From an uncultured Solirubrobacterales bacterium (lineage in GTDB: Bacteria; Actinomycetota; Thermoleophilia; Solirubrobacterales; 70-9), in contig OY970321.1 in NCBI GenBank assembly GCA_963716735.1, positions 2,210,021 through 2,274,020 on the forward strand: a stretch of DNA of 64,000 nt. Direction: 5' to 3'. A model generated the notes under the pieces. That model saw only the letters and a list, made by a program, of their open reading frames with translations. It was not told where the DNA came from and did not search any database. The stretch's first letter is position 1. Each line of letters opens with the position of its first letter. The position numbers and the translations under genes are program-made. Below are positions 7,426-43,560 of this stretch, in pieces.

Positions 7426-8301
7426 GCGGAAGAGATTGACCGAGCCGATGCGGCGCATCGCGTACTGGTCGTAGGGCAGGTCGCCGCGCCAGCGGTTGTG
7501 CGCCTCGGCGGAGACGAAGTAAGTCTCGGGGTCGCTTTCCATCGCCTCGATCTGGCCCGCCAGGTCCCGCTCGGAGAGGCCGAGGGCGGCGACGATCGCG
7601 TCGAGTTTCTCGCGGTGCTCCTCGGCGCCCCAGCCGGCGAGGACGTGATCGACGGCGTGGATCGAGCAGCCGTTGCGCTTCTGTACCAGCTCGTGGCCGG
7701 CTTCGACCACCCTGGCGACGTGCTCGAGTGGCACATGCTCGAGCACCGAGATCGAGAAGACCGCGCCGAAGTCGTCGCCGACGTCCTCGTTCGGTGGGAA
7801 GAGCTCGCGGACGAAATGCACATCGGGGTAGGCGCTCTGGAAGCGCTTGAACTCGCGCGGGCCGTTGCCGCCGCCCATGTAGTCGTCGACCACGGTCACG
7901 TCGTAACCGAGGCGCGAGAGCATCCCCGCTACCAGCGGCTCGCCGGCACCGATCTCGAGGATGCGGTCGCCGCGCTCGACGTTGCCGAGGATCGCCTTGA
8001 TCGCCCAGCAGCGCTGCAGGTCCTTCATGTCGAAGCTCGCTCCGGCGAGGCCGGTGAGGTGGTCGGCGCTGTCGGCGAAATCGCGCACGGTGCCATAGGA
8101 GATCGCTGCTAGCGGGAAGTCGCCGACGTAGCGCTCGGCGATCGGCCACAGCGCGCTGTCGGCGATCGTCCAGGCCGAGGCGTTGGCGCCGGGCGTCGCC
8201 CCCGAGGGGGCGTAGAGCGCGGCCTTGCCCGCCAGTTTGCGCAGCAGCGGCGAACGCGCCGCGGCGGCGCGCAGGCGTTGGGCCTGTGCCGTCGCGCTCA
8301 C
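7414..8301 (-). CDS. Class I SAM-dependent methyltransferase
   Basis: RILEIGAGEPLVAGMLSRLGYDVTVVDD ... FGAVFSISVLEHV (motifs I-III). I prefer GTG 8301, which forms a GTGA overlap with the upstream GT4 stop. The ORF track start is 8337. Confidence 0.75.
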   Translation of the reverse strand: MSATAQAQRLRAAAARSPLLRKLAGKAALYAPSGATPGANASAWTIADSALWPIAERYVGDFPLAAISYGTVRDFADSADHLTGLAGASFDMKDLQRCWAIKAILGNVERGDRILEIGAGEPLVAGMLSRLGYDVTVVDDYMGGGNGPREFKRFQSAYPDVHFVRELFPPNEDVGDDFGAVFSISVLEHVPLEHVARVVEAGHELVQKRNGCSIHAVDHVLAGWGAEEHREKLDAIVAALGLSERDLAGQIEAMESDPETYFVSAEAHNRWRGDLPYDQYAMRRIGSVNLFRSAG

Positions 8302-38850: not shown

Positions 38851-41800
38851 TTGAGCACTCGCCCGAAAGCACGCGTGAAATCTGACCCGCTGGCGCCGTT
38901 CAGCGCTCCGGTCAGGCGCTGGTTCGAGTCGTCCTTCGAGGGGCCGACGCCTGCCCAGGCGGGCGGTTGGGAGGCGATCGCCGGTGGCGCCAACTCGCTG
39001 ATCTGCGCCCCGACCGGCTCCGGCAAGACCTTGGCCGCCTTCCTCTGGGGCATCGACAAGCTCTCCCGGTCACCGGCGCTGGGGCAGGGCGTCAAGGTCG
39101 TCTACGTCTCGCCGCTGAAGGCGCTCTCCTACGACATCGAGCGCAACCTGCGCGCGCCGCTGCGGGGGATCGGGGCCGACATCTCCGTCGGCCTGCGCAC
39201 GGGTGACACCAGCCAGAAAGACCGCCGGGCGATGCGCAAAACGCCGCCCGACATCCTCATCACCACCCCCGAGTCGCTCTACCTGATGCTCTCCTCGGGC
39301 GCCCGCGAGATCCTCACCGGGGTCGAGGCGGTGATCGTCGACGAGATTCATGCGGTGGCCCAGTCCAAGCGGGGGTCGCACCTGGCGTTGACTTTGGAGC
39401 GGTTGGACCATCTGGTGAAGGACCATGCGGGTTCGGCCGCGGGTCCTGTCACGGGGGAGGGGGTGTCCGGGTCTGGGCTGGGTTTTTCGCCTGCTGAGGA
39501 TGCTCCCCTCGCTGAGTCGGATGGGCGAAAAAGAGGACGCCGCCCTGCCCCGGACACCCCCTCCCCCGTGACACCCGCGGGAGGGGCGCAGGGGGTTCAG
39601 CGGATCGGGCTGAGCGCCACCCAGCGGCCGCTTGAGCGGATCGCGAAGTTCCTGGTCGGTCCTAAGAGAGCTTGCGAGATTGTGGATGCGGGGGTGGCTA
39701 AGGAGCTGGACCTCGAGATCGTCGTTCCGGTTGAGGACATGTCGGAACCGGGGGCTCCTAATTTCCCCAACAGCGAGGGCGTTCCCAATGAGGGCGAGCC
39801 CCTGGCCCACGTCCGTTCGATCTGGCCCGCGATCTACCCCGAGCTCCTCAAGCTGGTCAAAGAACACAACTCGACGATCATCTTCGTCAACGCCCGTCGA
39901 GCAGCTGAGCGCCTGGCAAAGCGCCTCAATGAGCTTGCGGCCGAAGAACCGGAGCGTGAGCTACCAGCCACCGAGCAGGTGGGGCACTCCCCTTCCGCGG
40001 GTGGCGTGGGGGATGGGGGGGTCGAGGACGCCCCCGCCCGCAGCGCCCCCCCATCCCCCGCGACAGGACCCGCGGTTGACGGAAATGAGCCCTTGGTGGA
40101 GATCGCCAGGGCGCACCACGGGTCCCTGTCGCACGAAGAGCGCCTTGTGGTCGAGGAGATGCTCAAGTCGGGCCAGCTTCCCTGCCTGGTCGCGACCTCG
40201 TCGCTGGAGTTGGGCATCGACATGGGCGCCGTCGACCTCGTGATCCAGGTCGAGTCGCCGAAGTCGGTCAGCCGCGGGCTGCAACGGGTCGGCCGCGCCG
40301 GTCACTCGCTGGGCGAGGTCTCGCGCGGCCGCATCTTCCCCAAGTTCCGCGCCGACCTGCTCGAGTGCGCCGTCGTCGCGCGGCGGATGCGCGAAGGCGC
40401 GATCGAGGAGACGGTGATCCCGCAGAACCCGCTCGACGTGCTCGCCCAGCACCTGGTCTCGATGGCCGCGTTGGACGAGTGGGAGATCGACGAGGTCGAG
40501 CGCCTCGTCACCGCCACCCAGCCCTTCGGCGAGCTCTCGCGCGAACAGCTGGAGAACGTGCTCGACATGCTCGACGGTCGTTACCCGTCCGACCGCTTCG
40601 CCGAGCTGCGACCGCGGATCGTCTGGGACCGCACCCGCGGCACGATGCACGGCCGCAAAGGTTCCCGCCAGCTCGTCGTCACCAACGCCGGCACGATCCC
40701 CGACCGCGGCCTCTACGGCGTCCACCTGCCCGACGGCCGCCGCGTCGGCGAGCTCGACGAGGAGATGGTCTACGAGGCTCGGGCCGGGCAGACCTTCCTG
40801 CTGGGCGCGACGACCTGGCGGATCGAGGAGATCACCCGCGACCGGGTCATCGTCACGCCCGCGCCCGGCCTGCCGGGGGCGGTGCCGTTCTGGAAGGGCG
40901 ATGGGATCGGCCGCCCGGCCGAGCTGGGGCGGGCGATCGGCGCCTTCTCTCGCGAGGCGGTCTCGCGCGAGCCAAAGGAATTGGCCGCCGAGTACGACCT
41001 CGACCGCCGCGCCGCCGAGAACCTCGTCGCCTATCTGCGCGAGCAGCAGGCGGCCACCCGGGTCGTCCCTTCCGATGAGACGATCGTAGTCGAGCGCTTC
41101 CGCGACGAGATCGGCGACTGGCGCCTCTGCATCCTCTCCCCCTTCGGCGGCCGCGTCCACTCCGCCTGGGGCCTCGCTCTGGGCCAGAAGATCCGCGAGG
41201 AGCACGAGCTGGAGGCGGACGCGATCTGGTCCGACGACGGCATCGTCATCCACCTGCCCGACGCCGACGAGCCGCCGTCCGCCGACCTGGTCATGGTCGA
41301 TCCCGACGAGCTCGAGGACCTGGTCGTGCGCGAGCTCTCCGGCTCGGCCCTGTTCGGCGCCCGCTTCCGCGAGAACGCCTCGCGGTCGCTGCTGATCCCG
41401 CGCGCCTACCCCGGCAAGCGCACGCCGCTCTGGCAGCAGCGCCTCAAGTCACAGAGCCTGCTCGAAGTCGCCCGCGACTTCCCCCGCTTCCCGGTCATCC
41501 TCGAGACCTACCGCGAGTGCCTGCGCGACGTCCTCGACCTGCCCTCGCTGCGCCAGATCCTCACCGACCTGCACTCGCGCAAGCTCGGTCTGGTCGAGGT
41601 CGAGACGCCGACCGCGTCGCCCTTCGCCTCCTCGCTGCTCTTCGACTTCGTCGCCACCTACATGTACGAGGGGGACACGCCGAACGCCGAGCGCCGCGCC
41701 GCCGCGCTCTCCCTCGACCGCGACCTGCTGCGCGAGCTGCTCGGCCAGGAGGAGCTGCGTGAGCTGATCGACCCCGAGGCGCTGGTCGAGGTCGAGGCAC

Positions 41801-43560
41801 AGCTTCAGCATCGGACCGAGGCCGGCCGCGCCAGCGACCGCGACGCGCTGCAGCAGCTGCTCCGCAACCTCGGCGACCTCAGCGCCGAGGAGTGCGCGGA
41901 GCGCGTCACCGAGGGTTACTCGGCGGCGTCGATGCTGGAAAAGCTGGTCGCCGAGCGCCGCGTCGCGCCGATCCGCGTCGCCGGCAAGGAGCGTTACATC
42001 GCCGGTGAGGACGCCGGCCTCTACCGCGACGCGCTCGGCGTGCCGCCCCCGCCGGGGCTGCCCGAGACTTTCCTCGAGGACCACCCAGACGCGATGCGCG
42101 CCCTGGTCCGCCGCTACGCCCGCACCCACGGCCCCTTTCCGACCGTGCAGCTGGCCGAGCGCTACGGCGTCGATCCAACCCCGGCCCTGCGCGAGCTGGA
42201 GCGCGAAGGGGCGATGGTCCGTGGCGAGCTGCTGCCCGGTGGCAGCGAGCGCGAGTGGTGCGACGCCGACGTCCTGCGCCGGGTCCGTCGTGCCAGCCTC
42301 GCCCACCTGCGCCGCGAGGTCGAGCCCGCGGGCCGCGATCGCTTCGCTCGCTTCCTGCCCAGTTGGCAGAACGTCGACTCCCACCGTCCGGCAGGTGCCG
42401 GTCCGGACCGCCTGCGCGACGCACTCGTGCCGCTGCAGGGCGTCGCCCTCACGCCCAAGATCTGGGAGGAGGACGTGCTGCCGCGCCGCCTCGGCGCCTA
42501 CTCGCCGGCCTGGCTCGACGAGCTCTGCACCAGCGGCGAAGTGGTCTGGATCGGCGCCGGCTCGCGCGGGCGCAGCGACGGCCGCGTCGCCCTCTACTTC
42601 CGCGAGGACGTCCGTCTCGCCGGCCCGCCGCCCGCCAACGCGAAGCTCGAGCGCCGCGAGGGCGAGCCCCAGGAGGCGATTCGCGAGCGGCTTCTCTCCG
42701 GCCCCTCCTTCTGGCTCGATCTGCTCGCCGACCTCGACTTCCCCGGCGAGGAGCTGCACAACGCTCTGTGGGACCTGGCCTGGTCTGGAGAGGTGACCAA
42801 CGACGCGTTCGCTCCCCTGCGTGCGCCGCGCCTGCGCTCGGTGCCCGCGCACGAGCGCCAGGGCCGCCGCTTCGCCCGCCGCCGCTCGGGCGCCGGCGCC
42901 GCCGTGCAGGGGCGTTGGTCGTTGACCGCGCCGCTCTTCGCGGAGGCGCCGGGGCCGGGGGCGAAGCTGCGGGCGCAGGCCGAGCTGATGCTGGAGCGCT
43001 ACGGCATCGTCACCCGCGAGACGGTGCTCGCCGAGGGCGTGCCGGGCGGCTTCTCGACCCTCTACGCCGAGCTCGGCAACCTCGAGCTGCTCGGCACCGC
43101 CCGCCGCGGCTACTTCGTCGAGGGGTTGGGCGGCGCCCAGTTCGCCCTGGCCGGTGCGGTCGAGCGGCTGCGCTCGCTGCCGGAAACGAATGGCTCCCTG
43201 CAGGTTCTGGCCGCCACCGACCCCGCCAACCCCTACGGCGCCGCCCTGCCCTGGCCGAAACCGCCCTCAGGCAGGCGGCCCGCCCGCGCCCCCGGCGCCC
43301 ACGTGCTGCTGCGCGACGGCGAGCCACTCGTCTACGTCGAGCGCGGCGGCCGCAGCATCCTCCGGCTCCGCGAGCTCGCCGACGGCGAGCTCGCCACCGC
43401 GATGCAGGCGCTCGCCGACGCCGTCTCGGCCGGCCGCCTGCCGAAGCTCGGGATCGAGAAGCTCGACGGCGAGGCGGTGATCGGCTCCGGCCACGAGGAG
43501 GCGCTGCTCAGCGCCGGCTTCAGCCGCGGACCGCGCAAACTCACCGCCTCTGCCAGGTAG
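38851..43560 (+). CDS. lhr: ATP-dependent helicase Lhr (large helicase-related, DEAD/DEAH superfamily 2)
   Basis: 1569 aa. APTGSGKTLAAFL (motif I), VIVDEIHAV (DExH), GLSATQRP (SAT), HHGSLSHEER, TSSLELGIDMG, QRVGRAGH, and a long Lhr-type C-terminal region. Start TTG 38851, or GTG 38875. Confidence 0.9.
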   Translation: MSTRPKARVKSDPLAPFSAPVRRWFESSFEGPTPAQAGGWEAIAGGANSLICAPTGSGKTLAAFLWGIDKLSRSPALGQGVKVVYVSPLKALSYDIERNLRAPLRGIGADISVGLRTGDTSQKDRRAMRKTPPDILITTPESLYLMLSSGAREILTGVEAVIVDEIHAVAQSKRGSHLALTLERLDHLVKDHAGSAAGPVTGEGVSGSGLGFSPAEDAPLAESDGRKRGRRPAPDTPSPVTPAGGAQGVQRIGLSATQRPLERIAKFLVGPKRACEIVDAGVAKELDLEIVVPVEDMSEPGAPNFPNSEGVPNEGEPLAHVRSIWPAIYPELLKLVKEHNSTIIFVNARRAAERLAKRLNELAAEEPERELPATEQVGHSPSAGGVGDGGVEDAPARSAPPSPATGPAVDGNEPLVEIARAHHGSLSHEERLVVEEMLKSGQLPCLVATSSLELGIDMGAVDLVIQVESPKSVSRGLQRVGRAGHSLGEVSRGRIFPKFRADLLECAVVARRMREGAIEETVIPQNPLDVLAQHLVSMAALDEWEIDEVERLVTATQPFGELSREQLENVLDMLDGRYPSDRFAELRPRIVWDRTRGTMHGRKGSRQLVVTNAGTIPDRGLYGVHLPDGRRVGELDEEMVYEARAGQTFLLGATTWRIEEITRDRVIVTPAPGLPGAVPFWKGDGIGRPAELGRAIGAFSREAVSREPKELAAEYDLDRRAAENLVAYLREQQAATRVVPSDETIVVERFRDEIGDWRLCILSPFGGRVHSAWGLALGQKIREEHELEADAIWSDDGIVIHLPDADEPPSADLVMVDPDELEDLVVRELSGSALFGARFRENASRSLLIPRAYPGKRTPLWQQRLKSQSLLEVARDFPRFPVILETYRECLRDVLDLPSLRQILTDLHSRKLGLVEVETPTASPFASSLLFDFVATYMYEGDTPNAERRAAALSLDRDLLRELLGQEELRELIDPEALVEVEAQLQHRTEAGRASDRDALQQLLRNLGDLSAEECAERVTEGYSAASMLEKLVAERRVAPIRVAGKERYIAGEDAGLYRDALGVPPPPGLPETFLEDHPDAMRALVRRYARTHGPFPTVQLAERYGVDPTPALRELEREGAMVRGELLPGGSEREWCDADVLRRVRRASLAHLRREVEPAGRDRFARFLPSWQNVDSHRPAGAGPDRLRDALVPLQGVALTPKIWEEDVLPRRLGAYSPAWLDELCTSGEVVWIGAGSRGRSDGRVALYFREDVRLAGPPPANAKLERREGEPQEAIRERLLSGPSFWLDLLADLDFPGEELHNALWDLAWSGEVTNDAFAPLRAPRLRSVPAHERQGRRFARRRSGAGAAVQGRWSLTAPLFAEAPGPGAKLRAQAELMLERYGIVTRETVLAEGVPGGFSTLYAELGNLELLGTARRGYFVEGLGGAQFALAGAVERLRSLPETNGSLQVLAATDPANPYGAALPWPKPPSGRRPARAPGAHVLLRDGEPLVYVERGGRSILRLRELADGELATAMQALADAVSAGRLPKLGIEKLDGEAVIGSGHEEALLSAGFSRGPRKLTASAR
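39447..39573. repeat. Perfect 25-bp inverted repeat (39447-39471 / 39549-39573) with a 77-nt spacer, inside the lhr reading frame
   Basis: Left arm tgtcacgggggagggggtgtccggg equals the reverse complement of right arm cccggacaccccctcccccgtgaca (checked base by base). The spacer looks less GC-rich by eye. It encodes a low-complexity stretch between the DExH and SAT motifs. Confidence 0.85.
39995..40075. repeat. Second, composite inverted repeat inside lhr (ccgcgggt...gggggatggggggg / cccccccatccccc...acccgcgg)
   Basis: 14-bp perfect arms at 40008-40021 and 40046-40059, plus 8-bp outer arms at 39995-40002 and 40068-40075. It encodes SPSAGGVGDGGVEDAPARSAPPSPATGPAV between helicase domains 1 and 2. 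Confidence 0.75.

Follow-up and report, generated by a model that had tools for sequence, protein, structure and literature searches.

We investigated a G/C-rich palindrome in the lhr gene of an uncultured Solirubrobacterales bacterium, within a 64,000-nt stretch of contig OY970321.1 (assembly GCA_963716735.1, positions 2,210,021 to 2,274,020, forward strand), hereafter called the window, in which positions are counted from the first letter. The palindrome, located at 39995-40075, is in all likelihood one of the C-type members of a family of dispersed, non-autonomous hairpin repeats of 70-150 nt, similar to the Rickettsia palindromic elements (RPEs) and selfish or neutral in nature. A sequence-only reading of the window had proposed that this palindrome and another one in the same gene are members of one repeat family and not products of chance. 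This core reading was correct and the observation is confirmed: the two lhr hairpins have the common ends CCGCGGGTG… and …CAGGACCCGCGG, in opposite orientations, and about 22 further copies are present in the genome.

The lhr palindrome is predicted to fold into a single hairpin

The palindrome lies inside the lhr open reading frame (ORF), spans 81 nt and contains an exact inverted repeat, in which GGGGGATGGGGGGG (40008-40021) is the reverse complement of CCCCCCCATCCCCC (40046-40059), with a spacer of 24 nt. The outer arms, CCGCGGGT (39995-40002) and ACCCGCGG (40068-40075), pair as well. The perfect pairing of the 14-nt arms and the extension of the structure by the outer arms were thus exactly as had been claimed, and the predicted fold joins them in one continuous hairpin. 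It consists of an 8-bp outer stem (39995-40002/40068-40075), an asymmetric internal loop with GG (40003-40004) opposite ACAGG (40063-40067), an 18-bp inner stem (40005-40022/40045-40062) and an apex of 22 nt. The folding energy is −65.2 kcal/mol for the RNA (z = −5.14, with 0 of 200 shuffles as good), −64.1 kcal/mol for the opposite strand and −37.2 kcal/mol for the DNA (z = −5.51). No other perfect inverted repeat of at least 14 nt with a loop of at most 60 nt was found in the window, for which 40 first-order Markov simulations gave a mean chance expectation of 0.05 such repeats.

A family with a conserved base and variable interiors

The genome was searched by scanning for the G5-N-G5 tract and then for paired termini with a hairpin filter. 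Approximately 24 family copies of 72-144 nt were found in the 2.83-Mb chromosome (67.8% G+C), all of which start with CCGCGGGTGGC and finish with GACAGGACCCGCGG. Exact matches to the 14-mer GACAGGACCCGCGG number 15 in the genome, compared to 0 for the reversed control. The first lhr element, at 39437-39580 on the minus strand, in RecA domain 1, is a 144-nt copy of the D subfamily with the same termini in the opposite orientation, and the element at 39995-40075 belongs to the C subfamily.

The copies of the own genome were pooled with those of public loci into a set of 179 unique copies. Their common base is formed by a yCTy motif, the 8-bp outer stem CCGCGGGT/ACCCGCGG and the GG/ACAGG internal loop, which enclose a stem of 40-120 nt. 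The terminal positions are mostly invariant and the remainder is conserved at 92% or more: at the left terminus, the stretch 3-9 does not vary apart from position 4, and positions 1, 2, 4, 10 and 11 are conserved at 92-98%; at the right terminus no variation is seen from −12 to −9 or from −7 to −3, the others reaching at least 92%. The left-flank motif yCTy shows C in 92% of the copies at −3 and T in 69% at −2. Copies in reverse orientation carry it on the opposite flank, as GAGG; since yCTy switches sides with the orientation of the element, it is part of the element.

On the plus strand of the window, the base of the lhr copy begins with the pyrimidine-rich flank CCTT (39991-39994), delimited from the flank logo of the 179 copies. 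It is followed by the left terminus CCGCGGGTGGC (39995-40005), defined by fold and conservation, which comprises the outer-stem strand, the loop GG and the first base of the inner stem. The right terminus GACAGGACCCGCGG (40062-40075), defined by conservation in the 179 copies, carries the ACAGG side of the loop (40063-40067) and the other outer-stem strand (40068-40075). Between them, the G-rich arm of the variable inner stem (40005-40022), including the 14-nt tract 40008-40021, pairs with the C-rich arm (40045-40062); both arms are delimited by the fold and by covariation, with covarying columns in the alignment of 29 C-type copies. The apex (40023-40044) is that of the C subfamily, TCGAGGACG…CCCGCAGCG, conserved among C-type copies in the alignments, and the lhr copy has a short variant from which 6-9 nt are missing. 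If this apex deletion is set aside, about 90% identity is shared with the three other C-type copies of the genome, which lie in the rpsB tail, in linker 1 of the E2 acyltransferase and at position 1663802.

The interiors define several subfamilies: A (79 nt), B (72 nt), C (81-90 nt), D (144 nt) and E (93-97 nt). The sequence of the inner stem differs in almost every copy, with complementarity kept; among the 29 C-type copies, compensatory double changes were observed in 9 of 28 pairs and very few pairs were broken. The likeness first seen between the two lhr elements concerned the GGGGGANGGGGG tract. A likeness does exist, in the shared conserved base, but this tract is not what unites them, and when both elements are aligned together the termini are alike whereas the C-type and D-type interiors fail to align. 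The two lhr palindromes are therefore related via the invariant base and not via the G tracts.

No Rfam family was matched at the gathering threshold, the only hits being sub-threshold microRNA-hairpin noise. A literature search with the 13-nt string of the right terminus gave no match, and nothing on Solirubrobacterales palindromes was found in it.

An additional 3' tail, CCGnnnnCGCAyGGTCCCT, follows the right terminus in 18 of 177 copies, compared to 2 in the control flank. It is present at 39415-39436 of the window, in the antisense flank of the first lhr element, and with the copies at genome positions 684136, 2135823 and 1704150. At the first lhr site, filled alleles alone carry the tail, which there encodes …VKDHA…. 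In some lineages, the mobile unit may extend about 20 nt past the hairpin.

The insert lengthens a surface loop of Lhr

The host gene, lhr (38851-43560, plus strand), encodes a superfamily 2 (SF2) helicase of the Lhr type of 1569 aa, as identified from the ORF, its Pfam domains and its match to M. smegmatis Lhr (5V9X, E = 1e-256). The Pfam domains DEAD, Helicase_C, WH_Lhr, DEAD_assoc and WH2-4_Lhr correspond to a full-length Lhr. The 81 nt of the element encode in frame the low-complexity insert SAGGVGDGGVEDAPARSAPPSPATGPA, as had been read from the sequence; the 27 codons through the element (39994-40074, S AGGVGDGGVEDAPARSAPPSPATGP A) correspond to Lhr residues 382-408, and a predicted tryptic peptide spanning the insert is SAPPSPATGPAVDGNEPLVEIAR.

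The insert had been placed between the two RecA-like domains, which proved incorrect. It aligns to the segment ELPAGPNPEVGG…QANG of M. smegmatis Lhr, aa 301-326 (a numbering that uses a 20-residue tag offset inferred from two PDB entries), which in the crystal structure is a loop at the surface of RecA domain 2 (aa 231-435) and is disordered (PMC5758891). According to this alignment, the insert is situated inside RecA domain 2, after the motif-IV helix, where it would add 27 residues to the surface loop. Orthologues that have no palindrome (M. smegmatis, locus L166) possess a low-complexity loop of their own there, with a different peptide; the host loop was already of low complexity before the arrival of the element.

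Many copies lie in frame inside housekeeping genes

Using Pfam on the spanning ORFs, in-frame genomic copies were assigned to Lhr (two), to both linkers of the E2 acyltransferase (two), to the linker between the lipoyl domain and the PSBD of an OdhA/Kgd-like protein, to the DnaX tau linker, to the junction between the two halves of a GT4 glycosyltransferase and to the C-terminal tails of RpsB and RpsA. Genes for a permease, RpsI, a ParA-like protein and an FtsZ-like protein have further copies immediately upstream or within N-terminal extensions. At least 9 of the approximately 24 genomic copies are inside ORFs, and the family is thereby not extragenic in the manner of REP/REPIN sequences.

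The lengths of 129 of the 179 unique copies (72%) are divisible by 3, compared to 33% expected, which implies that about 58% of the copies are coding and in frame, if the non-coding ones follow the 1-in-3 expectation. A single frame, nCC|GCG|GGT, is used by 75 of about 100 ORF-spanning copies in either orientation, including the lhr copy at 39995-40075. Forward copies encode …AGG…TGPA and reverse copies AAGPV…PPAG, both being Gly/Pro/Ala-rich peptides.

The occupants of fixed sites turn over among relatives

The lhr gene was compared among 28 orthologues of the genus. The length of site 1, that of the first element, varies from 21 nt (empty) to 186 nt, and that of site 2 from 33 nt (empty) to 249 nt. 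These sites variously hold C-, D- and H-type interiors, a 48-nt mini version, both orientations and partial remnants, and at site 2 each of the four closest relatives has a different interior. No sequencing run contained the organism itself (share of at most 0.14); the contigs obtained belonged to relatives and show the same variability at both sites. Several relatives have nearly the same copy at the two lhr sites: in L150, these are identical at 102 of 103 positions in direct orientation, and in L143 at 115 of 123 positions in inverted orientation; such near-identical copies at both sites of one gene point to recent copying.

The same turnover was observed at other sites. The GT4 site holds an A-type interior in the own genome, a C-type in G026 and a reversed D-type in G008. 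In G017, it is reduced to CCTCGGGTCCACGCGG, i.e. the two outer-stem halves joined, and this allele has a CCTCGGG mutation in common with the filled allele of G008; we read it as a probable footprint of interior deletion. Stems-only footprints are not enriched in the own genome. The OdhA linker site carries an A-type interior in the own genome and in G008, a D-type in G017 and a C-type in G026. In this last copy the GGGGGATGGGGGGG stem of the lhr element recurs, and 77 of 81 positions are identical between the two, as counted from the alignment, whereas the entire 1079-nt query matched G026 at 82%. A further site, upstream of a gene for a Xer-like tyrosine recombinase, carries elements of five interior types in 7 of 30 relatives, holds partial remnants in 2 and is empty in 21.

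At this last site, the A-like copy of the own genome (684136-684213; L204:2453-2530) overlaps the stop of a 308-aa gene, to which it supplies the final residues SAAGGAG*, and ends 35-60 nt before the housekeeping recombinase gene. Most relatives have there only GCCGCGGGCGCC, a possible CCGCGG target.

Hairpin families devoid of the CCGCGGGTGGC/GACAGGACCCGCGG ends also occupy the lhr loops, in L157, L158, L161 and L167 at site 1 and in L145, L149 and L159-L161 at site 2. Examples are ggggcggatgggtcgggtccgtcggg…cccgacggacccgacccatccgcccc and ggggagg..ccggagcaacagcggggaggctcc..cctcccc. Their presence indicates that these loops have been colonised by more than one palindrome family. Two inserts break the frame, one of 74 nt with an in-frame stop at site 1 of L167 and one of 194 nt at site 2 of L155; the cause is either indels introduced by assembly in G/C tracts or true pseudogenisation at the hairpins.

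The family is patchily distributed and reaches a distant lineage

Of 36 genomes of the genus, 35 contain the exact 14-mer, at 5-28 copies each. More than 120 public loci match the pattern, and the record titles are nearly all those of Solirubrobacterales, Thermoleophilaceae or Conexibacter metagenome-assembled genomes (MAGs). In a class-wide sample of 151 genomes from 73 genera, the family is clearly multi-copy only in genera g1, g4 and g17. A genome labelled Chloroflexota (G064) is a mislabelled close relative, with an Lhr 93% identical, and a genome labelled Latescibacteria (G062) is truly distant, its S1 protein being 47% identical compared to 81-88% within the order. The latter has 23 copies; most lie between genes, in short gaps at the 3' ends of genes, and their lengths are not multiples of 3. 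Patchiness at the class level and occurrence in a distant lineage, taken together, speak for horizontal spread. Viral contigs gave no match to the family.

The public taxonomy labels are unreliable for G064, G061 and G062, the genomes behind L082, L071 and L093. A MAG labelled Vicinamibacterales has all its six motif copies on a single contig (C4) and contains 14 Y1_Tnp genes.

Search for a mobilising enzyme

Several results weigh against a mobile element. Genes for Y1/RAYT (PF01797), the TnpB Zn-ribbon or DDE_Tnp_1 were not found in the own genome, nor was a Y1_Tnp (PF01797) gene in G062 despite its 23 copies. The ends of the IS110-family (3 copies) and rve-type (14 copies) insertion sequences (IS) of the genome are unrelated to those of the element. 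A target-site duplication was not seen among the 179 copies, 131 having no shared flank base and the longest match being 4 nt, although the palindromic CCGCGG could itself hide such a duplication. The copy number is low. Even old orthologous sites keep the termini unchanged, which is as compatible with a function selected by the host as with mobility. Finally, translation of the insert is a prediction from the frame and length statistics.

Two candidate clues were rejected. The Xer-like recombinase was considered as a partner, but its gene is a universal housekeeping orthologue conserved in the order and the site upstream is empty in 21 of 30 relatives. Strand-specific folding was considered as a sign of an RNA or single-stranded DNA intermediate, but the G·U excess on the plus strand of the element depends on the subfamily: it is strong in the 72-, 78- and 90-nt types, missing or inverted in those of 87 nt (largely C-type) and 144 nt (D-type), and unrelated to the mRNA strand.

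The three IS110-family copies of the genome (14252-15642, 585669-587057 and 2322640-2324030) are 99% identical. The rve-type IS, of about 1.05 kb, form two related families (approximately 79% identity) of 8 and 6 copies, and their target looks like CTAG.

Interpretation

We favour the view that the lhr palindrome is a copy of a dispersed hairpin repeat that is selfish or neutral and is tolerated at places where floppy Gly/Pro/Ala loops and linkers result from it. Its retention in indispensable genes may be explained by the lethality that an imprecise deletion would cause there. Spread and interior exchange would proceed through the conserved base, by short-homology recombination, transposition or a structure-specific enzyme, and interiors could be lost by slippage across the hairpin. 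The element would have no dedicated role in Lhr.

A bolder possibility, to which we give a minor weight, is that the invariant base is a structure-specific recombination site recognised in its folded form, i.e. an attC-like cassette system acting at in-frame sites and crossing phyla, in which interiors would be inserted, inverted, exchanged and excised at fixed in-frame sites. Integron attC sites have conserved short ends and an imperfectly palindromic interior of about 57-141 nt, of which the structure and not the sequence is kept, and unpaired bases give them polarity. The hairpins described here likewise have conserved ends, a palindromic interior of variable length and asymmetric unpaired bases. 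However, in integrons the attC sites flank gene cassettes that are arrayed beside the IntI integrase, whereas the present hairpins are single and dispersed inside genes, and no cassette genes, array or integrase link were seen in our data.

The principal competing explanation is that the hairpins are cis-acting DNA or mRNA structures selected by the host, which would act in translational pausing at domain boundaries for folding, in mRNA stability or processing, or in protein binding at the base. The base is invariant throughout the genus and beyond, the lhr, OdhA and GT4 sites stay occupied across species despite changing interiors, the copies lie at domain boundaries of highly expressed housekeeping proteins, and the stems covary (double changes in 9 of 28 pairs, few broken). 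We nevertheless consider this explanation unlikely. One and the same site can carry the element in either orientation, alleles that are empty or reduced to a footprint are tolerated, the motif is absent from most genera of the same family, and copies in the distant phylum are intergenic. Moreover, the better-folding strand depends on the subfamily, antisense-inserted copies favouring the strand that is not the mRNA, and covariation can also result from arm-to-arm correction in palindromes.

The strong enrichment for lengths divisible by 3 and for one frame, together with the low-complexity loop at the same place in M. smegmatis Lhr, could indicate a Gly/Pro/Ala-rich linker peptide selected for itself, with the palindrome as a by-product. 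This is very improbable considering that the peptides differ between orientations (…AGG…TGPA versus AAGPV…PPAG) and between subfamilies, that intergenic copies keep the same ends, and that conservation resides in the nucleotide ends and the pairing, not in the peptide.

Slightly less probable still is a G-quadruplex or i-motif regulatory element built on the G5-G7 and C5-C7 tracts. The sequence-only reading had suggested that G-quadruplex propensity be examined, and the lhr copy at 39995-40075 does have this potential, with the canonical pattern of four G3+ tracts separated by N1-7 on both strands. It is not a family trait, as only 19 (plus strand) and 32 (minus strand) of the 179 members, i.e. 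11-18%, show the pattern; the competing hairpin is very stable, and it is in the G tracts that the family varies. A chance palindrome, which a genome of 68% G+C and a low-complexity loop might favour, has a negligible probability and is already refuted by the family evidence, with about 0.05 such repeats expected per window, a fold z of about −5 and identical ends in approximately 24 genomic copies and more than 120 loci elsewhere.

Comparison with known palindromic elements

RPEs (Ogata et al. 2000, 2002) are scattered hairpin-capable repeats of about 100-150 bp with several subfamilies and no known transposase, a large share of which lie in frame in unrelated housekeeping ORFs at fold-compatible positions (PMC10969869). 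They are the closest known system, in-frame insertion in unrelated ORFs at fold-compatible positions being common to both (PMC10969869). The likeness is one of behaviour only, and the host is here a high-G+C member of the Actinomycetota, an unrelated phylum. The present family is distinguished from RPEs by one invariant base for all subfamilies, by interchangeable interiors, by site turnover and by its occurrence in a second phylum. To our knowledge, none of the shared base, interior swapping, site turnover and cross-phylum ends has been described for RPEs.

The REP/REPIN elements, associated with RAYT (a Y1 HUH enzyme), are also hairpins with a short 5' motif beside the stem (GTAG there, yCTy here), and the G062 copies resemble them by their position in short intergenic gaps at gene 3' ends. 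In contrast to REP/REPIN, the present family has no Y1_Tnp in the own genome or G062, most copies of the genus are intragenic, and the stems are longer and variable. MITEs (miniature transposable elements with inverted repeats) such as Correia, ERIC and Nezha are likewise small, non-autonomous and multi-copy with inverted-repeat ends, and some of them fuse in frame (PMC10969869). Unlike MITEs, our hairpins show no target-site duplication and no parent IS with the same ends, and here the entire element is a compensated hairpin. The GC-clusters and byps of yeast mitochondria are, in the same way, GC-rich palindromic mobile inserts in protein-coding genes. Lang and colleagues are said to have reported in 2014 that the byps are skipped by the ribosome, whereas the frame and length statistics of the present family suggest read-through translation.

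The hairpin family of soil Solirubrobacterales is apparently undescribed, and the shared base with swappable interiors, the in-frame turnover at fixed sites and the cross-phylum occurrence are new as far as we found. The "selfish DNA inside proteins" of the RPE kind has been regarded as peculiar to Rickettsia; it is encountered here in free-living high-G+C soil bacteria, where the inserts form linkers of core enzymes and proteins (E2, OdhA, DnaX, ribosomal proteins and Lhr). The modular build and the turnover at fixed sites provide a handle on the movement of such elements and bear on the origin and evolution of protein linkers. In practice, apparent divergence is inflated by the inserts, which can also lead to frameshift or assembly errors when soil MAGs are annotated or used in phylogenomics.

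A ParA-like gene flanked by two copies

Two B-type copies (genome 2624512 and 2625581; L018:6513-6584 and 7582-7653) flank the ParA-like gene. This gene lies between a divergent gene for an ArsA-like ATPase and the FtsZ-like gene, an unusual ftsZ neighbourhood for an actinobacterium.

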